From: Escherichia phage Baret
DNA length: 64,000 nucleotides
Sequence record: OR896834.1
Reading direction: 5' to 3' (one strand)
This document shows, piece after piece, positions 1 through 24,839 of the stretch. The notes beneath the pieces were generated by a model. It did not search any database. It was given only the letters and a program-made list of their open reading frames with translations, and was not told the origin of the DNA. The position numbers and the translations under genes are program-made. Numbering within the stretch: the first letter of the stretch is position 1; each line of letters begins with the position of its first letter.

Positions 1-1317
1 ATGGAAGTATCAAGACCTTACGTTAATACAGTAGATGTTATTGATTTCGGAATAGATAAACGTTTCTTTCGTCTACCTGTTTCGGGAATACTAGCACAAG
101 AAGGTATTACACCTAATGGTCCTCAAATAGCGATTATTAATGCTCTAGAGGATCCTAGACATCGTTTTGTAACGGCGTGTGTATCACGCCGTGTAGGTAA
201 ATCCTTCATCGCATATACTCTTGGGTTCCTAAAATTGCTGGAACCTAATGTGAAGGTGTTAGTAGTTGCTCCTAACTATTCACTGGCCAACATCGGATGG
301 TCTCAGATTCGTGGTCTTATTAAAAAATATGGCCTACAAACTGAACGTGAGAACGCTAAAGATAAGGAAATTGAGTTAGCTAATGGTTCTCTGTTTAAAC
401 TAGCTTCCGCTGCTCAGGCTGACTCCGCAGTTGGACGTTCATATGATTTTATCATCTTTGACGAGGCGGCAATTTCCGATGTGGGTGGTGATGCCTTCAG
501 GGTTCAGCTGCGTCCTACTCTAGATAAACCTAATTCTAAGGCTCTATTTATTTCCACACCTCGTGGAGGTAACTGGTTTAAAGAGTTTTACGCCTACGGA
601 TTTGATGATACGTTGCCTAACTGGGTATCTATTCATGGTACATATCGTGATAACCCTCGTGCTGACCTGAATGATATAGAAGAAGCACGTCGTACGGTTA
701 GTAAAAACTACTTCCGCCAGGAATATGAAGCTGACTTCTCTGTATTTGAAGGTCAGATTTTTGATACTTTCAATGCTATTGACCATGTTAAAGACCTTAA
801 GGGTATGCGTCACTTCTTTAAAGATGATGAAGCATTCGAAACGTTGCTCGGTATTGACGTTGGTTATCGTGATCCTACAGCAGTTCTTACTATTAAATAT
901 CATTACGATACGGATACTTACTATGTATTAGAAGAGTACCAGCAGGCGGAGAAAACCACAGCTCAGCATGCTGCATATATTCAGCACTGTATAGATCGTT
1001 ATAACGTAGATCGTATCTTCGTTGACTCCGCGGCTGCCCAGTTCCGCCAGGACTTAGCTTATGAACATGAAATTGCATCAGCTCCAGCTAAAAAATCTGT
1101 CCTAGACGGTCTAGCATGCTTGCAAGCGCTATTCCAGCAGGGTAAGATTATTGTAGATGCTTCATGTTCTTCATTAATCCATGCATTGCAAAACTATAAA
1201 TGGGATTTCCAAGAAGGCGAAGAAAAATTATCACGTGAAAAACCACGTCATGATGCTAACTCTCACCTTTGTGATGCTCTGCGCTATGGAATTTACTCTA
1301 TTTCCCGTGGTAAATAA
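1..1317 (+). CDS. terminase large subunit (ORF begins at window position 1; N-terminus may be clipped)
   Basis: 438-aa ORF with P-loop-like VSRRVGKS and Walker-B-like DFIIFDEAA; first gene of a head-morphogenesis cluster (portal, protease, capsid follow). Confidence 0.8.
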   Translation: MEVSRPYVNTVDVIDFGIDKRFFRLPVSGILAQEGITPNGPQIAIINALEDPRHRFVTACVSRRVGKSFIAYTLGFLKLLEPNVKVLVVAPNYSLANIGWSQIRGLIKKYGLQTERENAKDKEIELANGSLFKLASAAQADSAVGRSYDFIIFDEAAISDVGGDAFRVQLRPTLDKPNSKALFISTPRGGNWFKEFYAYGFDDTLPNWVSIHGTYRDNPRADLNDIEEARRTVSKNYFRQEYEADFSVFEGQIFDTFNAIDHVKDLKGMRHFFKDDEAFETLLGIDVGYRDPTAVLTIKYHYDTDTYYVLEEYQQAEKTTAQHAAYIQHCIDRYNVDRIFVDSAAAQFRQDLAYEHEIASAPAKKSVLDGLACLQALFQQGKIIVDASCSSLIHALQNYKWDFQEGEEKLSREKPRHDANSHLCDALRYGIYSISRGK

Positions 1318-1330
1318 ATAAGTATAGGAA

Positions 1331-1354
1331 GGGATACTACTCAGTTGGTATCCC
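1331..1354 (+). other. perfect 7-bp stem-loop (GGGATAC-10nt-GTATCCC) between terminase and HNH genes
   Basis: inverted repeat read directly; no clear U-tract, so terminator function uncertain. Confidence 0.3.
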
Positions 1355-1431
1355 ATTCCTGCATTTTAAAATCCCCTTTACAAATTCGATACGATTATGT
1401 ATACTATATTCATACAGTTGAGGAGAACACT

Positions 1432-1869
1432 ATGGCAAGCAATGTAAAATATAAACGCGATGCTATATCCCTTATGAGAGACGGAATAAAAAGTCAATAT
1501 AAAAAAGACTCTCAATGTGCTATCTGCGGTTGTGCTGAAGAATTAGAGCTTCATCATTACCATACGGTGTCTCTACTAGTTAAAAAATTTGCTAAAGAAC
1601 TCCAATTGGATTTCACTGACGAAGAAATAGTCCTTTCAAATAGGACGGCATTCTATGATCGATATAGGCATGAGCTAGTAGAAGACACTGTTACCCTTTG
1701 TGTACACCATCACCAATTATTACATAAGGTTTACACAAAAGAACCTCCTTTATTTTCTGCTAATAAGCAAAAAGTGTGGGTTCAAAAGCAGAAAGACAAA
1801 TTACAGAATCCTCAAGAAAAGACACAAGTCAAGACTGAAACAAAATCAGGATTCGCAAGGTTCTTATAA
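1432..1869 (+). CDS. HNH endonuclease (terminase-adjacent)
   Basis: CAICGC...HHYH...CVHHHQLLH zinc/HNH motif; ATG 1432 preceded by GAGGAG RBS; ORF-track start 1345 is a TTG extension. Confidence 0.7.
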   Translation: MASNVKYKRDAISLMRDGIKSQYKKDSQCAICGCAEELELHHYHTVSLLVKKFAKELQLDFTDEEIVLSNRTAFYDRYRHELVEDTVTLCVHHHQLLHKVYTKEPPLFSANKQKVWVQKQKDKLQNPQEKTQVKTETKSGFARFL

Positions 1870-3080
1870 TGGGTTTTAAAAGCTGGATTACTGAAAAGCT
1901 AAATCCGGGTCAACGTATTATAAGAGACATGGAACCAGTTAGTCATCGCACTAACCGTAAGCCTTTTACCACTGGACAAGCCTACAGTAAAATTGAGATT
2001 CTCAATAGAACTGCTAACATGGTTATAGATAGTGCGGCGGAGTGTTCTTATACTGTCGGAGATAAATATAATATTGTCACGTATGCCAATGGCATCAAGA
2101 CAAAGACTCTAGACACTCTCTTAAATGTACGACCTAATCCATTCATGGATATAAGCACATTCCGTAGACTTGTAGTCACTGACCTACTTTTTGAAGGTTG
2201 TGCATACATCTATTGGGATGGCACAGCACTTTATCATGTCCCTGCTGCACTAATGCAAGTAGAGGCAGATGCCAATAAGTTTATCAAAAAATTTATATTT
2301 AATAACCAGATAGACTATCGCGTAGATGAGATTATCTTTATAAAGGATAACAGTTACGTGTGTGGCACAAATTCTCAAATTTCTGGGCAATCTCGTGTTG
2401 CTACTGTTATTGATTCTCTTGAGAAGCGTTCCAAGATGCTTAACTTTAAAGAGAAATTCCTCGATAACGGAACCGTGATTGGTCTTATTCTTGAGACGGA
2501 TGAAATCCTGAACAAGAAATTGCGTGAGCGTAAACAAGAAGAATTACAACTAGATTATAATCCTAGTACTGGTCAGTCCTCTGTCCTGATTCTAGATGGT
2601 GGTATGAAAGCTAAACCGTACTCCCAAATATCCTCTTTTAAAGATCTAGACTTTAAGGAAGACATTGAAGGATTTAATAAATCTATCTGTCTAGCCTTTG
2701 GTGTTCCGCAAGTGTTGCTTGATGGGGGTAATAATGCGAACATTCGACCAAACATCGAACTGTTCTATTATATGACTATCATTCCTATGCTGAACAAACT
2801 GACTAGTTCTCTTACTTTCTTTTTTGGTTATAAGATCACTCCGAATACTAAGGAAGTCGCAGCATTAACACCAGATAAAGAAGCAGAGGCTAAACATTTA
2901 ACCTCATTGGTTAATAATGGTATTATAACCGGTAACGAAGCTCGTTCAGAGCTGAACCTTGAACCTTTAGATGATGAGCAGATGAATAAGATCCGTATTC
3001 CTGCTAACGTCGCTGGTTCTGCAACAGGTGTATCTGGTCAAGAAGGTGGTAGACCCAAGAGTTCCACCGAGGGAGATTAA
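1869..3080 (+). CDS. portal protein
   Basis: 403-aa ORF between terminase and prohead protease; start overlaps upstream stop (TAATG); assigned by synteny and size. Confidence 0.7.
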   Translation: MGFKSWITEKLNPGQRIIRDMEPVSHRTNRKPFTTGQAYSKIEILNRTANMVIDSAAECSYTVGDKYNIVTYANGIKTKTLDTLLNVRPNPFMDISTFRRLVVTDLLFEGCAYIYWDGTALYHVPAALMQVEADANKFIKKFIFNNQIDYRVDEIIFIKDNSYVCGTNSQISGQSRVATVIDSLEKRSKMLNFKEKFLDNGTVIGLILETDEILNKKLRERKQEELQLDYNPSTGQSSVLILDGGMKAKPYSQISSFKDLDFKEDIEGFNKSICLAFGVPQVLLDGGNNANIRPNIELFYYMTIIPMLNKLTSSLTFFFGYKITPNTKEVAALTPDKEAEAKHLTSLVNNGIITGNEARSELNLEPLDDEQMNKIRIPANVAGSATGVSGQEGGRPKSSTEGD

Positions 3081-3082
3081 GA

Positions 3083-3568
3083 ATGATTGATTATAGTGGT
3101 CTGAGGACCATTTTTGGTGAAAAACTGCCAGAATCTCATATCTTCTTTGCTACGGTTGCTGCGCATAAATATGTTCCTAGCTATGCTTTTCTGCGTAGAG
3201 AACTAGGGCTTTCATCTGCGCATACTAATCGTAAAGTATGGAAGAAATTTGTAGAGGCTTATGGTAAAGCAATTCCTCCGGCTCCACCATTAACTCTTTC
3301 TAAAGATTTAACTGCGAGCATGTCAGTTGAAGAGGGAGCAGCATTAACACTTTCTGTTACTGCAACTGGGGGTACTGGTCCATATACTTATGCATGGACT
3401 AAAGATGGTTCTCCTATTCCTGGTGCTTCAGGAGCTACCTATACTAAGCCTACAGCAGCAGCTGAGGATGCCGGCTCTTATAAAGTAACTGTAACAGATA
3501 GTAAGCAAGTAAGTAAGGATTCTACTGCATGTGCTGTAACAGTTAATCCTACTGTTCCTGGAGGCTAA
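3083..3568 (+). CDS. capsid decoration protein with C-terminal Ig-like domain (pb10-like)
   Basis: 161 aa; C-terminal segment TLSVTATGGTGPYTYAWTKDG...SYKVTVTD is Ig-like; position between portal and protease. Confidence 0.6.
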   Translation: MIDYSGLRTIFGEKLPESHIFFATVAAHKYVPSYAFLRRELGLSSAHTNRKVWKKFVEAYGKAIPPAPPLTLSKDLTASMSVEEGAALTLSVTATGGTGPYTYAWTKDGSPIPGASGATYTKPTAAAEDAGSYKVTVTDSKQVSKDSTACAVTVNPTVPGG

Positions 3569-3571
3569 TAA

Positions 3572-4204
3572 ATGACACAAGCTGCTATTGACTATAACAA
3601 GTTAAAATCAGCACCGGTTCATTTAGATGCTTATATTAAATCTATTGATAGCGAATCCAAAGAGGGTGTTGTAAAAATACGTGGATTCGCTAATACAATT
3701 AGTAAAGATCGCGCTGGTGATGTAATTCCTGCTTCTGCATGGAAAACATCTAATGCACTTACTAACTACATGAAAAACCCGATTATTCTTTTCGGACACG
3801 ATCATCGTCGTCCAATCGGTAAGTGTATTGATCTTAACCCCACTGAAATGGGTCTCGAAATCGAATGCGAGATCTATGAAAGTTCTGACCCGGCTATCTT
3901 TTCACTAATTAAAAACGGTGTACTGAAAACTTTTAGTATCGGATTCCGCTGCCTAGATGCAGAGTGGGATGAAGCTACTGATATATTTATTATTAAAGAT
4001 TTAGAACTATACGAAGTTTCGGTAGTTTCTGTACCTTGTAATCAGGACTCAACATTCAATCTCGCTAAGAGCATGAATGGTCATGATTATACTGAATGGC
4101 GTAAATCTTTTACTGCAATAAGTTCTAAAGCTGTCCCAGCTCAAGAACGTAATCTTTCTGAACTAGAAAAACTTGCGATAGCTTTAGGCTACGTTAAAGA
4201 ATAA
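3572..4204 (+). CDS. prohead maturation protease
   Basis: 210 aa immediately upstream of major capsid gene; GGAGG RBS; assigned by synteny and size. Confidence 0.65.
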   Translation: MTQAAIDYNKLKSAPVHLDAYIKSIDSESKEGVVKIRGFANTISKDRAGDVIPASAWKTSNALTNYMKNPIILFGHDHRRPIGKCIDLNPTEMGLEIECEIYESSDPAIFSLIKNGVLKTFSIGFRCLDAEWDEATDIFIIKDLELYEVSVVSVPCNQDSTFNLAKSMNGHDYTEWRKSFTAISSKAVPAQERNLSELEKLAIALGYVKE

Positions 4205-4221
4205 CGGAGAATTATTTAAAA

Positions 4222-5598
4222 ATGACTATTGATATTAATAAGCTGAAAGAAGAACTTGGTCTGGGTGATCTGGCTAAATCTCTGGAAGGTCTGACCGCTG
4301 CTCAGAAAGCCCAGGAAGCTGAACGTATGCGTAAAGAGCAGGAAGAAAAAGAACTGGCTCGTATGAATGACCTGGTTTCTAAAGCAGTTGGCGAAGATCG
4401 TCAGAAACTGGAACAAGCTCTGGAACTGGTTAAGTCCCTGGATGAAAAATCTAAGAAGAGCGCAGAACTGTTCGCACAGACTGTAGAAAAGCAGCAGGAA
4501 ACCATTGTTGGTCTTCAGGATGAAATTAAATCTCTGCTAGCAGCTCGTGAAGGTCGTTCCTTCGTCGGTGATAGCGTAGCTAAAGCACTGTATGGTACTC
4601 AGGAAGCTTTTGAAGATGAAGTTGAAAAACTAGTTCTCCTGTCTTATATGATGGAGAAGGACGTATTTGAAACTGAACATGGTAAAGCCCACGTTAAAGC
4701 CGTTAATACTTCTTCCTCTGTACAGGTTTCCAGTGAAAACTACGAAACTATTTTCTCTACCCGTATCCTTCGTGACCTGCAGAAAGAGTTAGTAGTTGGT
4801 GCACTGTTCGATGAACTGCCAATGTCCAGCAAAATTCTTACTATGCTGGTTGAGCCTGAAGCTGGAAAAGCTACTTGGGTAGATGCTGGTTCCTACGGTA
4901 CTGATGCTACTGTTGGTAACGAAGTTAAAGGTACATTAACTGAAATTAGTTTTAAAACCTACAAACTGGCTGCTAAGTCCTTCATTACTGATGAAACTGA
5001 AGAAGATGCAATCTTCTCCCTGCTGCCGCTGCTGCGTAAGCGTCTGATTGAAGCACACGCTGTTTCTATCGAAGAAGCTTTTATGACTGGTGATGGTACT
5101 GGTAAGCCGAAAGGTCTGTTGAAACTGGCTGAAGATGATGGTGCTAAAGTTACTACTGAAGCTAAAGCTGATGGTACTGTTCTGGTAACTGCTAAAACTA
5201 TCTCTAAACTGCGTCGTAAACTGGGTCGTCATGGTCTGAAACTGAGCAAACTGGTACTGATAGTATCTATGGATGCTTACTACGATCTGCTGGAAGACGA
5301 AGAATGGCAGGATGTTGCACAGGTTGGTAACGATGCTGTTAAACTGCAAGGTCAGGTTGGTCGTATCTATGGTCTTCCGGTTGTAGTTTCTGAATACTTC
5401 CCAGCTAAAGCAGCAGATAAAGAGTTCGCAGTTATTGTTTATAAAGATAACTTCGTAATGCCGCGTCAGCGTGCTGTTACTGTTGAACGTGAGCGCCAAG
5501 CTGGTAAACAGCGTGATGCGTACTACGTTACTCAGCGTGTTAACCTGCAACGTTACTTCGAAAACGGCGTTGTATCTGGTGCTTACGCTGCATCTTAA
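4222..5598 (+). CDS. major capsid protein precursor with N-terminal coiled-coil scaffolding (delta) domain
   Basis: 458 aa; first ~150 aa charged coiled-coil (KLKEELGLGD...EIKSLLAAREG), then capsid-like body; strong codon bias (ctg/cgt/ggt) typical of a highly expressed gene. Confidence 0.85.
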   Translation: MTIDINKLKEELGLGDLAKSLEGLTAAQKAQEAERMRKEQEEKELARMNDLVSKAVGEDRQKLEQALELVKSLDEKSKKSAELFAQTVEKQQETIVGLQDEIKSLLAAREGRSFVGDSVAKALYGTQEAFEDEVEKLVLLSYMMEKDVFETEHGKAHVKAVNTSSSVQVSSENYETIFSTRILRDLQKELVVGALFDELPMSSKILTMLVEPEAGKATWVDAGSYGTDATVGNEVKGTLTEISFKTYKLAAKSFITDETEEDAIFSLLPLLRKRLIEAHAVSIEEAFMTGDGTGKPKGLLKLAEDDGAKVTTEAKADGTVLVTAKTISKLRRKLGRHGLKLSKLVLIVSMDAYYDLLEDEEWQDVAQVGNDAVKLQGQVGRIYGLPVVVSEYFPAKAADKEFAVIVYKDNFVMPRQRAVTVERERQAGKQRDAYYVTQRVNLQRYFENGVVSGAYAAS

Positions 5599-5618
5599 TA
5601 CAGGCTTTTCAGCCGATA

Positions 5619-5644
5619 AGGAGAGCTTCGGCTCTCCTTTTTTA
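5619..5644 (+). terminator. rho-independent terminator after capsid gene
   Basis: GGAGAGC-ttcg-GCTCTCC hairpin followed by TTTTTT. Confidence 0.7.
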
Positions 5645-5657
5645 TTGGGAAAAATAA

Positions 5658-6170
5658 ATGCAAATCATCACAGCCGAAGATTATAGATTATATGGTGGTT
5701 TAAAACGACCTGAATTAGAATCTGGTGTAGAAATGATGATTACTGCTGCCAATGCGCTGATCACAAGCCTTCTAGGCATGGATGACGCTGATGCGGTAGA
5801 CCAGTTAATCAATACAAAACCTACACGTAGGAAATATTTTCTGAGCTCACCATCTGCTACCTCCGTAACTAAAGTGACGATTAACGATAATGAGATTGAC
5901 CCAGAGCAGTATAGGCTATACTCTGACGGTATTATCCTCCTAAAGTTTAATCCTCCAGAAGGTTATATGGATGTAGCATATACACAAGGTGGATTCAATC
6001 CAATACCTGAAGATCTTAAGTTAGCAGCATGTATGCTAGTAGATCATTGGCATAAACAAGATTACCGCCAAGCTAAAACAATTGGTGGTGAAACAGTAAC
6101 CTTCAATAATACTAAATCTGGTATTCCAGAGCATATTCGTACTATTATTGAAGTATATAGGAGAGTATAA
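5658..6170 (+). CDS. head completion / connector protein (putative)
   Basis: 170 aa directly after capsid gene; synteny with T5-like head-tail joining genes. Confidence 0.45.
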   Translation: MQIITAEDYRLYGGLKRPELESGVEMMITAANALITSLLGMDDADAVDQLINTKPTRRKYFLSSPSATSVTKVTINDNEIDPEQYRLYSDGIILLKFNPPEGYMDVAYTQGGFNPIPEDLKLAACMLVDHWHKQDYRQAKTIGGETVTFNNTKSGIPEHIRTIIEVYRRV

Positions 6171-6937
6171 TGTCTCTTTCCGATCTAGCTAGACAAATTA
6201 TTAAAGAGCAGCTAGATACTGCAGGACGATCTGAAAATAATAAGAATACTGTTGTATACTCTGTTGAAACAGGGTTAAAAGATCCTACCAGAGACGGTAC
6301 TGTTGCTCAAGTATCTTTTAAGTTTTCAAAACCTGTATCACAAGATCTCCTTAACATTAGAACAGCTTCTATATTAAAAGCTGTATCCTCTAGCTTAGAT
6401 CTTTCTGGAGATTTAGGTGCTCTGGAGAATCTAATACAAGCAACCGCAGGTAAAAAATCTGCTGTAGGTAAAAAACGTTCTACAGGCAGAGTACAGGTAA
6501 ACTTTGGAGATCCTAAAGACGTAGAGGATGGATACTCAGGTGCAATAACAGGTGCTTCCGGACGTTTCGTGTCTAATAGCAATATGAAGGTTATATTAGA
6601 GATAGTTGCTAAAGAATACTTAATAAAGGATATGAAAAAGACAGGAGCGCCATTAAAATTTAGAACCGGTCGCTTTGCAAATTCTCTAAAAATTAAAGAT
6701 GTTATGCTTAGAGACGCAGAGACTAGTAAAGGTTCTCCTGAATTGAACGTAACATATAATTATATGACTCGTCCATATTCTGTGTTCAACCCCGCAGTAT
6801 CTACGTATAGAAGATTATCTCTACGACCTTATCCTGGCGCTAGAAACCCACAAAAACTTATTGGTGAGGCTATAGCAAAAGCTGCAAGAGACCTGATTCA
6901 CTCCAGATATAAAATTAAGGTTAATCAAGGAACCTAA
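6170..6937 (+). CDS. tail completion / neck protein (putative)
   Basis: 255 aa; ATG overlaps upstream stop; synteny. Confidence 0.4.
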   Translation: MSLSDLARQIIKEQLDTAGRSENNKNTVVYSVETGLKDPTRDGTVAQVSFKFSKPVSQDLLNIRTASILKAVSSSLDLSGDLGALENLIQATAGKKSAVGKKRSTGRVQVNFGDPKDVEDGYSGAITGASGRFVSNSNMKVILEIVAKEYLIKDMKKTGAPLKFRTGRFANSLKIKDVMLRDAETSKGSPELNVTYNYMTRPYSVFNPAVSTYRRLSLRPYPGARNPQKLIGEAIAKAARDLIHSRYKIKVNQGT

Positions 6938-6940
6938 TAA

Positions 6941-7426
6941 ATGGACCATAGAACAAGTATTGCACAAGCTATGGTTGACCGAATCTCTAAACAAATGGAT
7001 GGTTCTCAACCTGACGAATATTTTAATAACCTATACGGAAACGTTTCTCGTCAAACTTATAAATTTGAGGAAATACGAGAGTTTCCTTATGTGGCAGTTC
7101 ATATCGGAACTGAAACTGGGCAGTATCTTCCTTCGGGCCAACAGTGGATGTTTTTAGAACTTCCAATCCTGGTGTACGATAAAGAGAAAACAGACATTCA
7201 AGAGCAACTTGAAAAACTCGTAGCGGATATAAAAACCGTTATTGACACAGGTGGAAATTTAGAATATACTGTTAGTAAACCTAATGGATCGATCTTCCCA
7301 TGTGAGGCAACTGATATGATCATTACATCAGTTAGTACAGATGAGGGTCTACTGGCCCCATATGGTTTAGCAGAAATAAATGTAACAGTGAGGTATCAGC
7401 CTCCACGTAGGTCACTTCGCAGATAA
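6941..7426 (+). CDS. tail terminator protein (putative)
   Basis: 161 aa immediately upstream of tail tube gene. Confidence 0.45.
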   Translation: MDHRTSIAQAMVDRISKQMDGSQPDEYFNNLYGNVSRQTYKFEEIREFPYVAVHIGTETGQYLPSGQQWMFLELPILVYDKEKTDIQEQLEKLVADIKTVIDTGGNLEYTVSKPNGSIFPCEATDMIITSVSTDEGLLAPYGLAEINVTVRYQPPRRSLRR

Positions 7427-7452
7427 GTTACAGATTAGGAGAAAATAATTAA

Positions 7453-8859
7453 ATGTCTTTACAACTATTACGTAATACTCGAATCTTCGTGTCTACGGTT
7501 AAGACCGGTCACAATAAGACCAACACGCAAGAGATTCTAGTTCAGGATGATATTTCTTGGGGTCAGGACAGTAACTCAACAGATATTACTGTTAATGAAG
7601 CTGGTCCGCGTCCAACTCGTGGTTCTAAACGTTTTAATGACTCTTTAAACGCAGCTGAGTGGAGTTTCTCTACTTATATCCTGCCATATAAAGATAAAAC
7701 TACTAACAAACAAATTGTTCCTGACTATATGTTATGGCATGCACTTTCTAGTGGTAAAGCTATTAACTTAGAAGGTAATACAGGGGCACACAATAACGAA
7801 GCTAACTTTATGGTTAACTTCAAAGATAACTCTTATCACGAGTTAGCAATGTTACATATTTATATTCTGACTGATAAAGCATGGAGTTATATCGATTCCT
7901 GTCAGATTAATCAGGCAGAAGTTAACGTTGATATCGAAGATATTGGTCGTGTAACTTGGTCTGGTAATGGTAATCAGCTTATTCCTCTGGATGCTCAGCC
8001 ATTTGATCCAGATGTGGTAGGTATTGATGATGAAACTTATATGACTATTCAGAGTTCTTATATTAAGAACAAACTGACTATCCTGAAAATTAAGGATATG
8101 GATTCTGATAAGGCATATGATATCCCTATTACTGGTGGTACTTTCACCATTAATAATAACATCACGTACCTAACCCCAAATATTATGTCCCGTGTAAATA
8201 TTCCAATCGGTTCATTTACTGGTGCGTTTGAACTAACTGGTTCTCTGACAGCTTACCTTAATGATAAAGCTCTAGGATCTATAGAGCTATATAAAGATCT
8301 AATTAAAACTCTTAAGGTAGTTAACAAGTTTGAGATTGCACTTATCCTTGGTGGTGAATATGATGATGAACGTCCTGCAGCTGTGTTAGTTGCTAAACAG
8401 GCGCATGTTAACATTCCTACTATTGAGACTGATGATGTACTTGGTACTTCAGTAGAGTTTAAGGCTATCCCTACAGATCTGGATACTGGTGATGAAGGTT
8501 ATCTTGGTTTCTCTAGCAAGTATACTAAAACCACTGTGGCTAATCTGATTGCTACAGGAGATGGCGCTAAAACTCCACCAAAATTAGTTGAATCAATCAC
8601 AGTTAAATCTGCGGGTAATGTTACTTCAGTAGAGAATAGCAATACTTTGCAAATGTCTGTTGAGGTAACTCCGCCAGATGCTACTAATAGTGCTGTAACT
8701 TGGTCTATTTCTAGTGGTAATGCAGCTACAATTGATCCAGAATCTGGTCTATTAACTGCGGATACTACTAAGACTGGAGAAGTTACTGTGAAAGCTGTAG
8801 CTAAAGACGGTTCTGGTGTAGAAGGTACTAAGAGCATTACAGTTACTGCTGGTGGCTAA
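7453..8859 (+). CDS. tail tube protein with C-terminal Ig-like domain (pb6-like)
   Basis: 468 aa; AGGAG RBS; C-terminal ~90 aa (ITVKSAGNVTSVENSNTLQMSVEVTPPDATNSAVTWSISSG...) reads as a bacterial Ig-like fold; position before chaperones and tape measure. Confidence 0.7.
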   Translation: MSLQLLRNTRIFVSTVKTGHNKTNTQEILVQDDISWGQDSNSTDITVNEAGPRPTRGSKRFNDSLNAAEWSFSTYILPYKDKTTNKQIVPDYMLWHALSSGKAINLEGNTGAHNNEANFMVNFKDNSYHELAMLHIYILTDKAWSYIDSCQINQAEVNVDIEDIGRVTWSGNGNQLIPLDAQPFDPDVVGIDDETYMTIQSSYIKNKLTILKIKDMDSDKAYDIPITGGTFTINNNITYLTPNIMSRVNIPIGSFTGAFELTGSLTAYLNDKALGSIELYKDLIKTLKVVNKFEIALILGGEYDDERPAAVLVAKQAHVNIPTIETDDVLGTSVEFKAIPTDLDTGDEGYLGFSSKYTKTTVANLIATGDGAKTPPKLVESITVKSAGNVTSVENSNTLQMSVEVTPPDATNSAVTWSISSGNAATIDPESGLLTADTTKTGEVTVKAVAKDGSGVEGTKSITVTAGG

Positions 8860-10224: not shown

Positions 10225-10593
10225 ATGACTAAACAACAATATTTAATACTTTGTGAATCAATGGGTATAGAGCCTGATCCTAAGGCCATGCCTGTTGAAC
10301 TTGAAGACTTTCCACCTATTGTGGCTACTAGTATGAATATTTATAACAGTCTAATTGACTGCTTCATACCAGGTGACTTTCCTATCTTTATAGGTAAAGA
10401 TAAGGCTGCTCTAGGTGTTTTATTTGATATTTATGGGATTACTGATCCTATAGAGAAAGAATTTGTTCTACACATTATCAATATATTTGATGCTAAAGCT
10501 GTAGATGCTGCACGTAAACGTGCTGAGAAGCATAAACCGCAAAACGGAAGGATTCCTAACGTTAAGCCACATGCTAGATCTCGTGCACGGTAA
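10225..10593 (+). CDS. tail assembly chaperone C-terminal extension ORF (possibly expressed as frameshift fusion)
   Basis: no recognisable RBS before ATG 10225; its frame is open from 10138 and overlaps end of upstream ORF. Confidence 0.4.
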   Translation: MTKQQYLILCESMGIEPDPKAMPVELEDFPPIVATSMNIYNSLIDCFIPGDFPIFIGKDKAALGVLFDIYGITDPIEKEFVLHIINIFDAKAVDAARKRAEKHKPQNGRIPNVKPHARSRAR

Positions 10594-10628
10594 AAGTTTC
10601 CTCCAATGGGCGTTCCACGATGAGGCTT

Positions 10629-10660
10629 GGCTCTGGGTGATTTGCCCAGAGCCTTTTTTA
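10629..10660 (+). terminator. rho-independent terminator
   Basis: GGCTCTGGG-7nt-CCCAGAGCC hairpin followed by TTTTTT. Confidence 0.7.
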
Positions 10661-10676
10661 TTGGGAAAAATAAAAT

Positions 10677-13600
10677 ATGACTGATAAGCTAATACGAGAA
10701 TTACTAATAGACGTTAAACAGAAGGGGGCAACCCGTACTGCAAAGTCTATTGAAAACGTATCTGATGCATTAGAAAATGCTGCTGCTGCTTCCGAACTGA
10801 CAAATGAACAGTTAGGTAAAATGCCCAAAACTCTATATTCCATTGAGAGGGCAGCAGATAGAGCAGCGAAAAGTCTTACTAAAATGCAAGCTAGTAGGGG
10901 TATGGCTGGTATCACTAAATCCATTGATGGTATTGGTGATAAGCTAGATTACCTGGCTATCCAACTTATTGAAGTAACAGATAAGCTAGAAATTGGATTC
11001 GATGGAGTTTCTAGATCTGTTAAAGCAATGGGTAATGATGTTGCAGCTGCAACAGAGAAAGTTCAAGATAGATTGTATGACACTAATAGAGTTTTAGGCG
11101 GTACAACTAGAGGTTTTAATGATACTGCTGGTGCCGCTGGTAGAGCGTCTAGAGCCATTGGTAATACTTCTGGTTCAGCTCGTGGTGCAACTCGTGATTT
11201 TGCAGCAATGGCTAAGATAGGTGGTAGTTTACCTATTATGTACGCAGCTCTTGCTTCCAACATCTTCGTTTTGCAATCTGCATTCGAACAACTTAAATTA
11301 GGTGATCAGCTAAATCGTCTAGAAAAATTTGGTGTTATAGTAGGTACTCAGACAGGTACTCCTGTTCAGACCCTTGCTAGATCACTACAAGAAGCTGCTG
11401 GATATGCTATTTCTTTTGAGGAAGCAATGAGACAGGCATCTTCAGCATCTGCTTATGGATTTGATGCCGAACAACTTAATAAATTTGGTTTAGTAGCTCG
11501 TCGTGCTGCTGCTGTTCTTGGTGTTGATATGACTGATGCACTTAACCGTGTAATTAAGGGCGTATCTAAACAAGAAATCGAACTTCTGGATGAACTTGGT
11601 GTCACCATCCGTCTTAATGACGCATACGCTGATTATGTTAAACAGTTAAATGCTGCAAACACAGGTATAACATATAATGTTAATAGTCTTACCACTTTCC
11701 AGAAACAACAAGCATACGCTAATGCTGTTATAGCAGAGTCTACTAAACGTTTTGGTTACTTAGATGAAGTTTTACGTGCTACTCCGTGGGAGCAGTTTGC
11801 CGCTAATGCTGATGCCGCACTGAGAAAGATTCAGCAGGCTGCTGCTAAGTATTTAGGGCCGGTAATTGATGCTATCAACACAGTATTTTATACTTCTCAG
11901 GCTTCTATATCTGCTGAAGCAGCTAGAGCTCAAGAAAAAACCAATAGACAGATAGATCCTACCAACGTTGGTGCTGTTGCTTTAAGTTTGGCCGCTTCTG
12001 AAGAAGGCTATAATAAAGCTCTAGATATGTACAAGGAATCTCTTGATAAGCGTAATAAGCTAAAATCCGAATTCGATAAACGAATGGAGCAAGCGGATTT
12101 CTATACAAGATTAGCCATACGTCAAGTTGGTGAAGGTATTCCTGTTGGTCTTGCTGCTGCTGGTGCTTCCGAAGCTAATAAAAAGTTCGTAGAAGAAACT
12201 GCGGCTATGGGTCTACAAGTAACCAGACTAGGTAAGGAAGTAGAAGATTCTACTGAAAACCTTAATGCTTGGAAGTCAGCCTATCAAGCTGCGGGTGCTG
12301 CTGCTGCAAAAGCTAATCCAGAGTTTCAGAAACAGATTAATCTACAGAGAGATACTACTGATCCTGGTGCTGTATATGACTTTAACTCCACAGTATTAAA
12401 AGGACTAACTGAACAACAGAAAGCATATAATCAAACTAAGAAAACTGCTAGTGACTTAGCTAATGATATACAGAACGTTGCTCAGAATACAGATACTGCT
12501 GCTAAAACTAGTGCTACTTTAGCAGATGCTATAAAAAACATAGAATCTCTATCATTAGGCACTGGTAAGAGTGCCGATGAGTATGTTAAAAACCTTAACC
12601 TGGGCTATAACACACTGTCTGAAATGAAAACTGCATCTCAGGCTCTATCTGAGTATGTTAAACTAACTGGTAATGAAACTAAAAATCAGTTAGCAGTTCA
12701 ACAGAAAATAGCTGATGTGTACAACCAAACTAAGGATAAGGAAAAGGCTCAGGAAGCTGGTAGACGTTTAGAGTTGCAACAGTTAGAAGAGCAAGAAGCT
12801 GCTTTACGCCGTGTTCTTCAAACAAACCAGGGAAATAAAGCTGTTGAGAAAGAAATTGAAAAAATTCAGCTGGAGAAACTTAGACTTACCAATCAGGGTA
12901 TGGAAGCCCAGAAGAAGGTCAAGGATTACACAGATAAAATTCTTGGTGTAGATCGTGAGATAGCTCTCCTGAATGACCGTACTATGACTACTACTCAATA
13001 TAGATTAGCTCAGCTAAAACTAGAACTAACTGTAGAGAAAGAGAAGTACGAATGGTATACAAAACAAGCGGACAAACAGAAAGAGGCGGAACAGTCTAGA
13101 CGTGCGCAAGCACAAATAAGCCGGGAGTTATGGGAAGCGGAGAAGCAGGCAACTGCCTCACATGTATCAGCTCTCATGGATGCACTAGAAGTCAGCCAAA
13201 CACAAAGAAATGTTACTGGCCAAGCTCAGATTCTTACGGAAAGATTATCTGTTTTGCAAGAACAGCTAGAACTATCTAAGGGCAATACCGAAGAAGAGAT
13301 CAAGTATCGTAATGAGATCTATAAAACTGCTGCTGCTCTAGAGCAACTTAGAAAGCAAAGAGAAGGCCAAATGCAGCAACAGGTAGGATCTTCTGTGGGT
13401 GCTGTGTACACTCCTACAACTGGACTATCTGGGGAAGACAAAGATTTTGCAGATATGCAAAATAGAATGGCTTCTTATGATCAGGCAATCTCTAAGCTAT
13501 CTGAATTAAATTCTGAAGCAACCGCTGTGGCTCAAAGTATGGGTAACTTAACTAACGCTATGATTCAGTTCTCTCAGGGATCCTTAGATACTACCTCCTT

Positions 13601-19990: not shown

Positions 19991-20413
19991 ATGAGTACTG
20001 AAAATAGAGTTATAGACTTAGTGATAGATGAGAAAGTACCTTATGGTCTAATGATGCAATTCTTAGATGTTGATGATAGTACTTATCCGCATACAAATAC
20101 CCCTGTTAACTTAACAGGGTATTCTCTAAGAGGTACTATAAAGACCAGTCTTGATGAGAATGCGGAAACTTTGGCATCTTTTACTACTAAAATTATTGAT
20201 GCTGCTCAAGGTGCTATAGCCATAAGTTTGCCCGTAGAGGCGGTAGAGAATATTGGTGCCAAAGCCACCAAAGAAAGAGATAAATATAATCCTCGCCAAC
20301 GTTTTGCAGGATACTATGACATAATTATGACACGAGATGTCATAGGATCAGCTATTAGCTCCTTTCGTATAATGGAGGGTAAAGTATTTATCAGTGATGG
20401 GGTAACTAAATAA
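19991..20413 (+). CDS. small tail collar protein (p132-like)
   Basis: 140 aa between pb4-like gene and tail-fibre gene. Confidence 0.45.
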
Positions 20414-22803
20414 TGGCAGTAACTACTAAAATTATTGTGCAACAAATACTGAATATAGATGATACGAAAGCTACTGCTAGTAAATTTCCTAGATACACCG
20501 TAATTCTTGGAAATTCTATTAGTTCTATTACTGCTAGTGAGTTAGTATCTTCTATAGAAGCCGCTGCTAAATCTGCTGCAGCTGCTAAAGATTCTGAAAT
20601 AGCAGCTAAGACTTCAGAGCTTAATGCTAAGAACTCTGAACAGAAAGCTGCTATTTCTGCTGGAGCTTCTGAAGCTTCTGCTACTCAGTCTGCTACCTCT
20701 GCTACTCAGTCTGCCACTTCTGCTACTAAATCCGCAGAATCAGCTGCAGCTGCAAAAACCTCTGAAACCAATGCTAAGTCTAGTGAAACAAAAGCTAAAA
20801 CTAGCGAAACTAATGCAAAAGCTAGTGAAACAAAAGCTAAAACTAGCGAAACTAATGCAAAAGCTAGTGAGGATAAGGCAAAGGCTAGTGAAACTAATGC
20901 TGCTGCTTCGGCTGCAGCGGCAAAACTTAGTGAGGATAATGCAAAGGTCAGTGAGACTAATGCTGCCGCTTCTGCTGCGGATTCCAGTGGTTTTAGGAAT
21001 GAGGCGGAAACATTCTCTACACAAGCTGCGACATCAGCTTCTGCTGCAAAAACCTCCGAAACAAAGGCTAAAACTAGCGAAACTAATGCAAAAGCTAGTG
21101 AGACTAAAGCCAAAGCTAGTGAGACTAACGCAGCTAGTTCCGCAACTTCAGCTAGTCAGTCAGTAACTACTATTCAAGGCTTAAAATCAGATGTTGAGCA
21201 ACTAAAATCAGATACTCAGGCCATTAAAAACAGTGCTGTAACAGAGACAACAGCTATAAAAGCAGATGTTGCACAGTTAAAAACAGACACACAAGGCATT
21301 AAGAATAGCGCGATAACAGAAACTACCACGCTAAAAAACCAAGCTGCAACTTCTGCAACTAATGCTGCTAATTCTGCAGCAGAAGCGGGGAGACAGGCTA
21401 CTGCTGCTGCTAATAGTGCTAATACTGCTAAAACTGAAGCCGATCGTTCAAAAACTGAGGCTGATAGATCAGAAGCTGCTGCTAATTCTACCCCCGACAT
21501 TCAACCTCTTCCAGATGTATGGATACCGTTTAATGACTCTCTGGACATGCTAGCAGGATTTGCACCAGGCTATAAAAAAATAACAGTCGGTGATGAGGAA
21601 ATAACAATACCTAGTGACAAGATTGTTAGCTTTACACGTGCATCAACTGCGACATATATTAATAAATCAGGTGTATTAGCTGTTGCGGAGATTGACGAGC
21701 CGCGATTTGAACTAGATGGGTTGTTAATTGAAGGGCAAAGAACTAACCTGCTAATCAACTCAACCAATCCGACTAAATGGAACAAGTCGTCAAATATGAT
21801 CTTAGATAGATCAGGTGTAGATGATTTCGGATTCCAGTACGCAAAATTCACATTAAAACCAGAAATGGTAGGACAAACTTCAGCTATTAACATAGTAACC
21901 GTTTCCGGCAGTAGAGGTTTTGATGTAACAGGAAATGAAAAGTATGTAACCATATCATGCAGGGCGCAAAGTGGGACTCCAAATTTAAGATGCCGATTAC
22001 GATTTGAAAATTACGATGGATCTGCTTATACATTTTTGGGTGATGCTTACGTAAATCTGACAGATTTATCAATTGAAAAAACTGGCGGCGCTGCAAATCG
22101 TATTACTGCAAGGGCTGTTAAAGATGAAGCAAGCAAATGGATTTTCTTTGAGGCAACAATTAAAGCGCTTGATACAGAAAATATGATAGGTGGAATGGTT
22201 CAGTATGCGCCAGCAAAAGGGGAAGGTACTGGTGCAGATGATTATATTTATATTGCGACACCTCAAGTTGAAGGCGGGGCGTGCGCTTCATCGTTTATTA
22301 TTACAGAAGCGACTCCAGTAACACGGGCAAGCGATATGGTCACATTACCAATAAAAAACAACCTTTACAATTTGCCGTTTACAGTACTTGTGGAAGCTCA
22401 TAAAAACTGGAGTATAACGCCAAATGCAGCGCCACGTGTTTTTGATACCAGCGGTCATCAAACCGGAGCGGCTATTATTCTTGCTTTCGGATCTGCCGAA
22501 GGCGATAATGATGGTTTCCCTTATTGCGATATAGGTAAATCAAACAGAAGGGTTTACGAGAATGCAAAACTAAAAAAGATGATCATGGGAATGAGAGTAA
22601 AGAGTGATTACAATACTTGCTGTGTAAGTAATGCCAGAATATCAAGCGAAACAAAAACGGAATGGAGATACATACAATCAACGGCTACTATAAGGATTGG
22701 AGGACAAACAACTACGGGCGAACGTCATCTTTTCGGGCACGTTAGAAACTTTAGAATCTGGCATAAGGAACTAACTGATAGACAAATGAAGGAGTATGTA
22801 TGA
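20413..22803 (+). CDS. L-shaped tail fibre protein A: N-terminal heptad-repeat shaft, C-terminal globular receptor-binding region
   Basis: 796 aa; residues ~90-250 are 7-residue repeats (SETNAKA/SETKAKT...), then 20-residue repeats, then Cys-containing globular C-terminus. Confidence 0.65.
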   Translation: MAVTTKIIVQQILNIDDTKATASKFPRYTVILGNSISSITASELVSSIEAAAKSAAAAKDSEIAAKTSELNAKNSEQKAAISAGASEASATQSATSATQSATSATKSAESAAAAKTSETNAKSSETKAKTSETNAKASETKAKTSETNAKASEDKAKASETNAAASAAAAKLSEDNAKVSETNAAASAADSSGFRNEAETFSTQAATSASAAKTSETKAKTSETNAKASETKAKASETNAASSATSASQSVTTIQGLKSDVEQLKSDTQAIKNSAVTETTAIKADVAQLKTDTQGIKNSAITETTTLKNQAATSATNAANSAAEAGRQATAAANSANTAKTEADRSKTEADRSEAAANSTPDIQPLPDVWIPFNDSLDMLAGFAPGYKKITVGDEEITIPSDKIVSFTRASTATYINKSGVLAVAEIDEPRFELDGLLIEGQRTNLLINSTNPTKWNKSSNMILDRSGVDDFGFQYAKFTLKPEMVGQTSAINIVTVSGSRGFDVTGNEKYVTISCRAQSGTPNLRCRLRFENYDGSAYTFLGDAYVNLTDLSIEKTGGAANRITARAVKDEASKWIFFEATIKALDTENMIGGMVQYAPAKGEGTGADDYIYIATPQVEGGACASSFIITEATPVTRASDMVTLPIKNNLYNLPFTVLVEAHKNWSITPNAAPRVFDTSGHQTGAAIILAFGSAEGDNDGFPYCDIGKSNRRVYENAKLKKMIMGMRVKSDYNTCCVSNARISSETKTEWRYIQSTATIRIGGQTTTGERHLFGHVRNFRIWHKELTDRQMKEYV
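20680..21165 (+). repeat. in-frame tandem repeat tract within tail-fibre gene, including a perfect 42-bp tandem duplication (20782-20823 = 20824-20865)
   Basis: repeat read directly from sequence; encodes heptad repeats; explains spurious antisense/out-of-frame ORFs at 20624-21166. Confidence 0.85.
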
Positions 22804-23078
22804 GAGATATAATCCTAAAATTCACGGATAAATCAGCATATAAAGATTTTCTCTTAAAAATAGAGTGGGATACTAATGAAAATTTGCAAAACCAAATAAT
22901 GCTTGACGAAATTGGATATACTTATACTGAAATCTCTCCGCTAGGTGATGAGGAACCTAGATGCATCCGTAATGAAGGGTATTATATTAATGTAAGGATT
23001 CTTGATGAATCCTTTACTTACGAATCCTTCGAGCCTTTTATAGTTCAGCTAGAACAGCCTCTTAGAGTATGGGCATAA
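22800..23078 (+). CDS. hypothetical protein between the two tail-fibre genes
   Basis: 92 aa; AAGGAG RBS 5 nt upstream; ATG overlaps upstream stop. Confidence 0.45.
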   Translation: MRDIILKFTDKSAYKDFLLKIEWDTNENLQNQIMLDEIGYTYTEISPLGDEEPRCIRNEGYYINVRILDESFTYESFEPFIVQLEQPLRVWA

Positions 23079-23087
23079 GGTTTTATA

Positions 23088-24839
23088 ATGGTAACTAAAA
23101 CAGTAATTCCTACGGATATTACAAAACTTAAAAATGAGTCACTTAATAAAAATAATAACCTGAGTGACTTAGCAGACCGTGCAGCAGCATGGCTAAATGT
23201 ACGTCCTATTGGATCTACTCCCCTTGCGGGAGACCCCGTTAATGATTATGATGCTGTAACTAAGCGTTGGGTAGAAAATAAGATTAATACTGGCACAGTA
23301 GGACCCACAATGAATGGTGTCATGAACTATGGTGTAGGTGATTTTCACCTTCGCGATAGCCGTGCGTATATTCAACCTTATGAGGTAGTTTCTGATGGGC
23401 AGCTTCTTAACAGGGCTGACTGGCCGGAGCTTTGGGCTTACGCTCAAATGGTGGGGGCTATAGAGGATTCTGAATGGCTGGCTGATAAATTTCAGCGCGG
23501 CAAATACTCTAAAGGGAATGGAACAACAACCTTTCGTGTTCCAGATAAGAATGGTGTACAAGATGGGTCAATACGCGCTCTTTATGGCCGCGGAGATGGT
23601 GGGAATAGCAATGCAAATGGGCAACTGTTCGAATCCGCTGCGCCTAATATCTATGGGCGTATTGCTAGTTATTCTGGCTCGTCATATGCTCAGGTATTCA
23701 GCGATATCAATCAAGGTGCATTTAGAACAAGTAATGATCTATACCCTGCTGCGGCAGGTGATGCAATCCCGATGACGGGTGCAATTTCAATATCTGGGCG
23801 CTACAACACCCTTGAGATTGATGCGTCACGCTCAAGCCCGATCTACGGGGCATCAAATGACGAAATCCTTACACGAAACTTTGTCGGCGTCTGGGTGATT
23901 CGTGCATCTGGTGGATTTGTTGCTGCGAAGACATCATGGAGTGTGATAAACGCTGATGCTGTTAAACCTTCTGCTAGTACTACTGTTTATGGCGGAAGTG
24001 TACTATCTGAATATAAAGTAGGTACTAGCAGTGAAGCTATAAGTACATTACGTGCTAAAGCTACTATTGATGGCAACTACTCTACTGAGCTACTAATAGA
24101 TAATAAATCTACTGGTAAATCGAGTTCCGCCCAGCTTGTAGATACTGGGAATTTTGTAGCGGATCGTTTTGAAGCTAATCTAGTAACTGGTATGGCGTGG
24201 TCTCAGACGGGCTGGGTACAAGGTACTTTTTCTCAGAGCGAAGCGAATATAGGCAGTACATTTAATTTTAATAGTATTTTGAGTGGTTCCCAGTATTCTA
24301 CTGCGGGGTATAAAACATCTGCACATTTTGGATTAATTCATAATGACTTGGGTTCCTTTGCTGATTCTTGCTGGCATGTATCAGGAGATGCGGATAACAA
24401 ATTTGGTGTACGTTTAAAAATTCAACCAAACAATAATAGTATTTATTTCTATTCTTGGTGGCCAGGTGCTTCAGCAACCTATACTTTGCAATTAAATGCT
24501 GTATCTGATTCTCGCTTAAAGCATGATATTAAGGCTATAGACGCAACTAAGTCCATCGAGGTATTAAAAGGATTAGAATTCCAATCCTTTGTATATAATA
24601 ACGATGAAAAATCTCGTGTCCGACGTGGGGTTATTGCTCAGCAAGTAGAGACTATAGAACCACTTTATGTAAAAACTAGAAAATTTTATAATGATGACGG
24701 AATAGAGCAGGAGCAAAAGGAATTAGATACAACTCCAATGCTTCTTGACACTATGCATGTTGTGCAAGATCTTATTAAACGGATTGAAGATCTAGAGAAA
24801 GAGCTTGAGCAATTAAAGGTACAATTAGTATCACAATAA
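23088..24839 (+). CDS. L-shaped tail fibre protein B with tail-collar-type domain and C-terminal intramolecular chaperone (peptidase S74-like) domain
   Basis: 583 aa; N-terminal DAVTKRWVENK and ADWPELWAY motifs; C-terminal NAVSDSRLKHDIKAID...RRGVIAQQVE typical of self-cleaving tail-fibre chaperone domains. Confidence 0.75.
   Translation: MVTKTVIPTDITKLKNESLNKNNNLSDLADRAAAWLNVRPIGSTPLAGDPVNDYDAVTKRWVENKINTGTVGPTMNGVMNYGVGDFHLRDSRAYIQPYEVVSDGQLLNRADWPELWAYAQMVGAIEDSEWLADKFQRGKYSKGNGTTTFRVPDKNGVQDGSIRALYGRGDGGNSNANGQLFESAAPNIYGRIASYSGSSYAQVFSDINQGAFRTSNDLYPAAAGDAIPMTGAISISGRYNTLEIDASRSSPIYGASNDEILTRNFVGVWVIRASGGFVAAKTSWSVINADAVKPSASTTVYGGSVLSEYKVGTSSEAISTLRAKATIDGNYSTELLIDNKSTGKSSSAQLVDTGNFVADRFEANLVTGMAWSQTGWVQGTFSQSEANIGSTFNFNSILSGSQYSTAGYKTSAHFGLIHNDLGSFADSCWHVSGDADNKFGVRLKIQPNNNSIYFYSWWPGASATYTLQLNAVSDSRLKHDIKAIDATKSIEVLKGLEFQSFVYNNDEKSRVRRGVIAQQVETIEPLYVKTRKFYNDDGIEQEQKELDTTPMLLDTMHVVQDLIKRIEDLEKELEQLKVQLVSQ

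Follow-up and report, generated by a model that had tools for sequence, protein, structure and literature searches.

C-terminal Ig-like domains of two sequence families on the capsid decoration and tail tube proteins of the T5-like Escherichia phage Baret

Do the head and the tail of this phage both display Ig-like domains, and what might such domains do on the virion? We addressed these questions in a window of 64,000 nucleotides from Escherichia phage Baret (OR896834.1), in which an earlier note had read the C-termini of a decoration protein and a tail tube protein as bacterial Ig-like folds linked to weak adherence to carbohydrates or mucus. The genome in the window is that of a Tequintavirus (T5-like); over region 3083-8859 its DNA shares 97.6% identity with phages mar004NP2 and PMBT29, and the gene order around both genes is that of T5. 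Mass spectrometry showed the orthologues of both proteins to be structural in one sequenced Tequintavirus with 97.6% DNA identity. Our reading, to which we assign a probability of about 0.9, is that of a T5-like siphophage encoding orthologues of pb10, the decoration protein, and pb6, the tail tube protein, each with an exposed C-terminal Ig-like domain and a putative adhesin role. PDB and Pfam matches agree with the gene identities proposed in the earlier note. The Ig-like C-termini of both proteins are supported far above chance, by Pfam scores over the gathering cut-offs and by solved homologous structures 67-100% identical within the Ig-like domains (98% for pb10, 67-100% for pb6). Identity to proteins already solved and tested establishes the predicted folds, exposure and anchoring.

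The head protein comprises the following features:

3083..3568, plus strand: gene of the capsid decoration protein pb10, 161 aa (ORF; full-length match to the T5 decoration protein, PDB 8zvi, E 9e-101)
3086..3262, plus strand: N-terminal alpha-helical capsid-anchoring domain of pb10, residues 2-60 (Pfam PF21393, Phage_pb10_N)
3272..3289, plus strand: Pro/Ala linker IPPAPP of pb10, residues 64-69, with PPAPP at 65-69 (alignment to 8zvi, 3-residue gap)
3290..3565, plus strand: C-terminal Ig-like domain of pb10, I-set/Ig_3/Hoc-like and solvent-exposed, residues 70-161 (Pfam, 5lxk)

The pb10 gene is flanked by those of the portal (pb7, 1869-3080, Phage_portal) and the prohead protease (pb11, 3572-4204, Peptidase_S78), an order shared with T5 (T5.151 synteny), and its product is 100% identical in amino acids to the orthologues of Salmonella phage PMBT29 and of mar004NP2. 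The anchoring domain scored 132.3 bits against a Pfam cut-off of 27, is identical to T5 at 62 of 62 positions, and also matches PDB 5lxl. The pb10 family motif is defined as F-G-x2-L-P-x4-5-F-F (PMC5292684), and we read it in this anchor, in the form F-G-x2-L-P-x4-F-F, as IFGEKLPESHIFF. The PPAPP linker is 3 residues shorter than the PPAPPAPP of T5 pb10. Beyond it, the C-terminal domain is identical to the NMR structure 5lxk at 90 of 92 positions (E 3e-51), and over residues ~78-154 it exceeded the Pfam cut-offs of Ig_3 (34.1, cut-off 30), Ig_2 (30.9, 27) and I-set (24.7, 23.7), the Pfam core corresponding to nt 3314-3544. This domain also hit, less strongly, Hoc of RB49 and T4, RAGE, titin and Fab light chains, and it matches the PHROG "Hoc-like head decoration". 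A single-sequence AlphaFold2 model of pb10 (mean pLDDT 36.9, pTM 0.21) was unusable and carries no weight. The earlier note was right to place an Ig fold at this C-terminus; its start at about 3380, however, is ~90 nt too late, since the domain begins at ~3290, and would cut away ~30 residues at its beginning, the first beta-strands among them. GenBank entries of many relatives annotate the pb10 orthologue as "tail fiber", "tail protein" or "neck whiskers"; the one in the window should be named capsid decoration protein.

We predict that a pb10 monomer occupies the 120 hexamers at their centres with picomolar affinity, the value for the N-terminal domain of T5, because the anchor is 100% identical to that of T5 and the capsid protein region is 95% or more conserved. 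The N-terminal helical domain would lock into the middle of every one of the 120 capsid hexamers, and the short Pro/Ala linker would project a flexible Ig-like domain into solvent.

The tail protein comprises the following features:

7453..8859, plus strand: gene of the tail tube protein pb6, 468 aa (ORF; full-length matches to PDB 8hqz, E 3e-286, and 7qg9/5ngj, E ~8e-269)
7453..8556, plus strand: tube-forming domain of pb6, residues 1-368 (alignment to T5, DT57C and SaI_NFG_5581)
8557..8583, plus strand: linker GDGAKTPPK of pb6, residues 369-377 (alignment to 7qg9, 3-residue gap)
8584..8856, plus strand: C-terminal Ig-like domain of pb6, Big_2, residues ~378-468 (Pfam PF02368; alignments to 5ngj and 8hqz)

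The pb6 gene lies between those of the tail terminator p142 (Phage_tail_terminator_7) and the baseplate tube p140 (Baseplate_Tube_p140), and residues 1-466 of its product match PHROG 3575, major tail protein (E 3e-263). Residues 1-365 are 93-100% identical to T5, DT57C and SaI_NFG_5581, and the duplicated tube domain of ~370 residues is colinear with T5 pb6 in full-length alignments to 5ngj, 7qg9 and 8hqz. In T5, the crystal structure 5NGJ has a duplicated tube fold and trimeric pseudo-hexameric rings; the tube consists of 40 pb6 trimers, with the Big-2 domain peripheral and flexible (PMC5717097). The window pb6 is predicted to form the same kind of rings because its tube domain is 93% identical to T5; the duplicated domain would stack as about 40 trimeric rings, and one C-terminal Big_2 domain would protrude from every subunit. 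Compared with T5, the linker has 3 extra residues. Big_2 scored 49.6 bits (cut-off 22.8) over residues 379-456, with its core at nt 8587-8820; the domain aligns to T5 residues 375-462, called Big-2 in PMC5717097, and is 100% identical to SaI_NFG_5581, 83% to DT57C and 67% to T5. This agrees with the Ig domain that had been proposed at 8560-8859, a range that adds the linker and the stop codon.

The two domains belong to different Ig-like families, Ig_3/I-set in pb10 and Big_2 in pb6, since mutual sequence similarity is absent; the BLASTP matches between them are all at chance level (E 1.6 and 1.9), and we rejected the possibility that they are duplicates of each other. The label "bacterial Ig-like", which had been applied to both, therefore suits the tail domain (Big_2) but not the head domain, which is of the sequence-unrelated I-set/Ig_3/Hoc type. 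The Pfam search that the earlier note had suggested as a check gave an Ig-like fold in both proteins, with Big_2 on the tail and I-set on the head above the cut-offs. The virion would then show ~120 head and ~120 tail Ig-like modules, of two unrelated families. Programmed frameshifting as the means of adding the domains was also rejected, as both are in-frame C-terminal parts of uninterrupted single ORFs; full-length pb10 and pb6 align unbroken to solved chains. Recent foreign insertion was rejected too: GC3 in the Ig segments is 0.15-0.17, below the rest of the genes, and the segments are fully adapted to phage codon usage. Two antisense ORFs, 4936-5550 (204 aa) and 8499-8837 (112 aa), have low-complexity, unsupported translations and were treated as chance ORFs. 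A Pfam scan of the virion module found as further domains three Fn3-like domains in pb4 and the LtfC beta-sandwich, both standard in T5.

Architectures of this kind are widespread, as the earlier note had implied in calling them typical of T5-like virions: the pb10 anchor was found in 527 phage records, the window pb10 architecture in 382 and the window pb6 Ig domain in 455 (the latter two at >=80% query coverage). Comparison of the junction sequences of 11 phages (the window and 10 relatives) revealed that the pb10 anchor carries one Ig domain, two Ig domains, fn3, one Big_2, two Big_2 or a deleted domain across the 10 relatives. The swap junction is fixed, after FVEAYGKA at the pb10 linker. 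Ig cargo at this junction of T5-like phages consists of one or two Ig_3-type domains; the fn3 cargo has its nearest relatives from outside in tail proteins of Lactobacillus phages, at 63% identity, and STyj5-1 has an internal deletion. Klebsiella phage K7_rec1, the only Klebsiella relative examined in full, has Big_2 on the head and no Ig domain on its tail tube protein, which ends NPVTP shortly after GDG, inside the linker; 4 Klebsiella records match the window pb6 Ig domain, against 78 that match region 3083-8859. Modules are thus swapped, duplicated, deleted or missing in relatives while the virion genes remain intact. Against T5, the pb6 Ig domain has 67% identity and a dS of 1.48, the tube domain 93% and 0.49, and exchange of Ig modules among T5-like phages is evident in these alignments. 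Nei-Gojobori dN/dS (omega) was 0.12-0.34 for the Ig modules and 0.03-0.08 for the tube domain, and the Ig modules are under relaxed purifying selection.

What, then, are the modules for? By analogy with other phages, we hypothesize glycan or mucus adhesion for T5-like phages. Both modules would be accessory adhesins that the virion can do without, touching surface glycans (LPS/O-antigen on cells, possibly mucins) in a weak, multivalent and reversible way, and such contacts would hold virions close to their hosts. Hoc-like, whisker and lambdoid tail-tube proteins carry homologous Ig modules (40-50% identical), and modules of this class, for example in T4 Hoc, have been proposed or shown to bind glycans or mucin (cited in PMC5292684). 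For the T5 proteins themselves, carbohydrate or mucus adherence is only a cited general proposal (PMC5292684, PMC5717097), and our literature searches found no mucin- or glycan-binding experiment and no proven ligand for either T5-type Ig-like domain. A bolder version, in which the pb10 anchor is a natural plug-in scaffold for display and its cargo determines ecological or host preference, the two modules having distinct specific glycan ligands, seems to us quite improbable; were it true, the glycan ligands of the two unrelated modules would contribute to host range or to the site where virions persist.

The domains might instead serve the particle itself. Loss of the Ig domain of lambda gpV alters burst size and temperature sensitivity, as cited in PMC5717097, and pb10 guards against DNA release in harsh buffers (PMC5292684); a point against the adhesin reading is that the protein is dispensable in the laboratory, its sole measured phenotype being delayed DNA release at high temperature in acidic or low-Mg buffers (PMC5292684). 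Yet the stabilising interaction maps to the N-terminal anchor, with the C-terminal domain moving independently and solvent-exposed (PMC5292684); capsid stabilisation by pb10 comes from the anchor and not from the Ig domain. Moreover, mCherry or ovalbumin can take the place of the C-terminal domain and the anchor still binds with picomolar affinity (PMC10766600), while pb6 tubes assemble without their Ig domain, which certain T5-like tail tube proteins naturally lack (PMC5717097). A specific structural contact is also difficult to square with relatives in which this junction bears an unrelated cargo fold or no cargo at all, and we consider a particle role unlikely, even though purifying selection at the omega values above fits any useful function. 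At the other extreme, the modules could be near-neutral mobile passengers, harmless, devoid of a specific ligand and spread by recombination among phage structural genes. The frequent exchange (seen in the contrast between the pb6 domains in identity and dS), the deletion in STyj5-1, the Klebsiella clade without the tail domain and the dispensability of both domains in the laboratory all fit such passengers. However, omega is far under 1 in all comparisons of homologous modules, the reading frames are unbroken, GC3 is low and host-adapted, and both architectures recur in hundreds of phage records (382 and 455); together these argue for long-term selection keeping a folded domain, and make the passenger explanation highly improbable.

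Regarded as a discovery, the observation has little importance: the head and tail Ig-like domains of the window are already known, this is an ordinary T5-like phage, and the window itself holds no novelty; the ligand question is general to T5-like phages rather than specific to the window. T5 genome papers are said to have predicted both domains already. The structures were solved in 2017, pb10 by NMR (5LXK, PMC5292684) and pb6 by crystallography (5NGJ, PMC5717097). Both Ig-like domains were seen once more in the cryo-EM structures obtained later for virions of T5 and DT57C. The usefulness for display engineering that the earlier note suggested is already a reality, as T5 capsid-like particles have been decorated with chimeras of pb10 and mCherry or ovalbumin, and display on pb10 has been published as a vaccine platform (PMC10766600).

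Among known systems, the closest is T5 pb10 (T5.151; PDB 5LXK, 5LXL, 8ZVI; Vernhes et al. 2017, PMC5292684), with which the window protein shares gene position and two-domain architecture. It differs in the linker and in two Ig-domain substitutions, D to G at window residue 114 and T to A at 149; these differences are trivial. The window pb6 is likewise colinear over its full length with the T5/DT57C tail tube protein (T5.145; 5NGJ, 7QG9, 8HQZ; Arnaud et al. 2017, PMC5717097; Ayala et al. 2023, PMC10713586), sharing 93-94% identity in the tube domain and likewise ending in a Big_2 domain; unlike in T5, however, its Ig module is of the DT57C/SaI_NFG_5581 type. With T4 and RB49 Hoc, pb10 shares an exposed I-set-type module on a monomeric decoration protein at the hexamer centre (C-terminal domain against RB49 3shs, E 1.7e-5; T4 5vf3, E 6.4e-3). 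The pb10 anchor, in contrast, is N-terminal and unrelated to the C-terminal capsid-binding domain of Hoc, and pb10 has one Ig domain where Hoc has three. The T5-type anchor binds about 1000 times tighter than Hoc (PMC10766600).

In SPP1 gp17.1*, the Ig domain is added via a frameshift, whereas that of the window pb6 is in frame. As in lambda gpV and the SPP1 tail tube proteins, a Big_2-type domain that is dispensable for assembly is appended to the tube protein (PMC5717097). Unlike in those phages, the pb6 tube domain is duplicated and the rings are trimeric. On phage surfaces more broadly, Fraser et al. 2006/2007 are said to have reported Ig-like domains, and Barr et al. 2013 reportedly put forward the model of "bacteriophage adherence to mucus".

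Both proteins that the earlier note had singled out as carrying Ig-like folds at their C-termini, the capsid decoration protein pb10 and the tail tube protein pb6, do so, as judged from Pfam matches above the cut-offs and from solved structures (5lxk, 5ngj, 7qg9 and 8hqz). Mapping of ORFs over the first 14 kb, together with Pfam scans, places their genes in the canonical T5 late-gene order:

1-1317: large terminase (ORF map and Pfam)
1432-1869: conserved 145-aa ORF, 115 nt after the large terminase gene
1869-3080: portal (Pfam Phage_portal)
3083-3568 (+): 161-aa ORF, pb10, between portal and prohead protease
next: prohead protease (Peptidase_S78), then major capsid protein (Phage_capsid)
next, in order: head completion protein (HCP), tail completion protein p143, tail terminator
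7453-8859 (+): 468-aa ORF, pb6, between tail terminator and baseplate tube protein p140
downstream of p140: two chaperone-like ORFs, then the 1226-aa tape measure protein
beyond tape measure: pb9, pb3, pb4 (three Fn3-like domains and a spike), LtfC and two lateral-fibre genes

In pb10, Phage_pb10_N matched residues 2-60 (132.3 bits, cut-off 27), and residues ~78-154 scored above the gathering cut-offs of Ig_3 (34.1, cut-off 30), Ig_2 (30.9, 27) and I-set (24.7, 23.7). Window pb10 matched the T5 full-length decoration protein (PDB 8zvi, E 9e-101), the T5 pb10 N-terminal domain (5lxl) and its C-terminal domain (5lxk, E 3e-51, identical at 90/92 residues), and, more weakly, proteins with classical Ig-superfamily folds (RB49 Hoc, T4 Hoc, RAGE, titin and antibody light chains). 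The N-terminal anchor is identical to that of T5 (62/62 residues); the T5 linker is PPAPPAPP, in contrast to PPAPP in the window, and two Ig-domain positions differ. In the solved T5 protein, the N-terminal domain is alpha-helical and binds the capsid, a poly-proline linker follows, and the Ig-like C-terminal domain is exposed to solvent and partly independent; the protein is present in 120 copies, one per hexamer centre (PMC5292684). Based on the T5 structure and on these matches, the Ig domain begins at residue ~70 (nt 3290); of the span initially proposed (about 3380-3568), the end holds but the start does not. A single-sequence AlphaFold2 model of low confidence (pLDDT 36.9) was given no weight. 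Experimental structures settle the fold. Orthologues of pb10 are widely misannotated in GenBank ("tail fiber protein", "tail protein", "neck whiskers", "whisker protein", "tail fibers protein"), and the pb6 orthologue of SP01 is also labelled "tail fibers protein".

In pb6, Big_2 matched residues 379-456 (49.6 bits, cut-off 22.8). The protein aligned end to end with 8hqz (E 3e-286), whose sequence is that of DT57C, and with the T5 pb6 structures 7qg9 and 5ngj (E ~8e-269); its linker is 3 residues longer than that of T5. The Ig-like domain spans residues ~378-468 (nt 8584-8856), in agreement with the 8560-8859 first suggested. The T5 tube consists of 40 trimeric rings with the flexible Ig-like domain of pb6 at the periphery; tube formation is independent of this domain, and some T5-like tube proteins do not have it (PMC5717097).

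The label "bacterial Ig-like", applied earlier to both domains, suits only the tail domain (Big_2), the head domain being of the Ig_3/Ig_2/I-set type. BLASTP between the two C-terminal segments gave chance matches only (E 1.6 and 1.9). Since the Pfam families also differ, head and tail must have acquired their modules independently, from two Ig-like families, and duplication of one from the other was rejected. Both domains are in frame with the rest of their own protein in the ORF map, so no frameshift is involved. Overall, the observation is confirmed and its interpretation supported once the family names and one coordinate are slightly corrected. Every element of it is already published, including the pb10 Ig-like C-terminal domain (5LXK), the pb6 Big-2 domain (5NGJ), the presence of such domains on T5-like virions (DT57C and mature T5) and the use of pb10 for display, in which the anchor tolerates mCherry or ovalbumin in place of the C-terminal domain (PMC10766600); finding these domains on window pb10 and pb6 adds nothing new.

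The region was also taken from ten relatives, and both proteins were extracted and their variants scanned. The pb10 anchor is conserved among the relatives compared; the cargo that follows the junction FVEAYGKA varies:

one Ig_3-type domain: window, T5, BB1, SP01 and SaI_NFG_5581
two Ig_3-type domains: DT57C (pb10 of 245 aa; already noted in PMC10713586)
fn3 domain: Salmonella phage Spc35 (L009:7196-7486)
one Big_2 domain: Yersinia phage phiR2-01
two Big_2 domains: Klebsiella phage vB_Kpl_K7_rec1 (pb10 at L008:3672-4391)
internally deleted stump: Salmonella phage vB STyj5-1 (pb10 of 107 aa, L006:1198-1521)

In STyj5-1 most of the Ig domain is lost through an in-frame internal deletion that spares the anchor; this is a natural "anchor-only" variant or possibly an assembly error. 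The anchor occurs in 527 records of the phage collection; the full pb10 query (anchor plus window-type Ig C-terminal domain) is covered to at least 80% in 382 phage records, and the pb6 Big_2 domain, at coverage of at least 80%, in 455. The Spc35-type fn3 cargo was found in 26 records at identity of at least 90%, and its next-best relatives, with identity of up to 63%, form part of major tail proteins in Lactobacillus phages; phages of Gram-negative and of Gram-positive hosts thus seem to share this module. The K7_rec1 tube protein (L008:8421-9548, 375 aa) ends a few residues past the GDG linker motif, and a domain scan of the extracted protein revealed no Ig domain.

Nei-Gojobori omega values of the relatives against the window were 0.03-0.08 for the tube domain and higher for the Ig modules (0.12-0.32 in pb6, 0.17-0.34 in homologous Ig domains of pb10), so the Ig modules are under purifying but relaxed selection. 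Compared with T5, identity is 67% for the pb6 Ig domain and 93% for the tube domain, and synonymous divergence of the Ig domain is three times that of the tube domain (1.48 against 0.49), which points to exchange of the pb6 Ig module among T5-like phages rather than faster drift alone. Region 3083-8859 is a mosaic at the gene level (compared with loci L001 and L007): window pb10 is 100% identical to that of PMBT29 and mar004NP2, and window pb6 is ~100% identical to that of SaI_NFG_5581, with zero synonymous differences, whereas the pb10 Ig domain of the latter is only 85% identical. The GC3 of the Ig segments (0.15-0.17) argues against recent import from a GC-richer source, which we reject.

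The pb10 N-terminal domain would anchor quasi-irreversibly at hexamer centres, as shown for near-identical tested proteins. In T5, pb10 delays DNA release under harsh conditions only (PMC5292684), and the Ig-like domains of pb10 and pb6 are both peripheral and mobile (PMC5292684, PMC5717097). The ~240 exposed modules per virion may serve as adhesins that bind surface carbohydrates weakly and multivalently. Such adhesion has been proposed for Ig-like domains of phages in general, with experimental support for T4 Hoc (cited via PMC5292684). The literature found, including these two papers, reports no ligand for the Ig-like domains of T5 pb10 or pb6. A role in structure or assembly is weakened by the exchangeability and dispensability of the modules. 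That the domains are near-neutral passengers is likewise weakened, omega being well below 1 and the domains widely retained.

Along its full length, region 3083-8859 shares 97.6% DNA identity with two phages of Tequintavirus (Demerecviridae), Escherichia phage vB_Eco_mar004NP2 and Salmonella phage PMBT29, and it matches 550 phage records in all; the best records for the first 25 kb reach about 94%. The window thus adds a further member to a genus that has already been sampled very densely. Its 24896-58000 segment is the standard T5 replication/nucleotide-metabolism module (dUTPase, flap endonuclease, SbcCD-like ATPase and nuclease, helicase, family A DNA polymerase, DnaB-like helicase, NAD-dependent ligase, NrdD and NrdAB), and no tRNA genes were found in the 64-kb window. 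The 145-aa ORF matches PHROG 3497 (unknown function), with a weak HNH-like match (E 5.8e-6). Two antisense ORFs (-), at 4936-5550 (204 aa, inside the capsid gene) and 8499-8837 (112 aa, inside the pb6 Ig-coding segment), have low-complexity translations and no support as genes.

Two strong intrinsic-terminator-like hairpins with T-runs, at 5618-5639 (after the major capsid gene) and 10629-10653 (before the tape measure gene), lie where the T5 and BB1 records annotate terminators. The homing endonuclease gene found between the large terminase and the 145-aa ORF in T5 (T5.154) and mar004NP2 (gp071) is absent from the window (1317-1869), as is the T5.141 endonuclease that precedes the T5 tape measure gene (10593-10677 in the window). 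The two lateral tail fibre genes (20413-24839) encode a 796-aa protein without a Pfam match and a 583-aa protein with a Peptidase_S74 intramolecular chaperone domain; they are arranged like LtfA/LtfB of DT57C, unlike T5, which has a single 1396-aa pb1.
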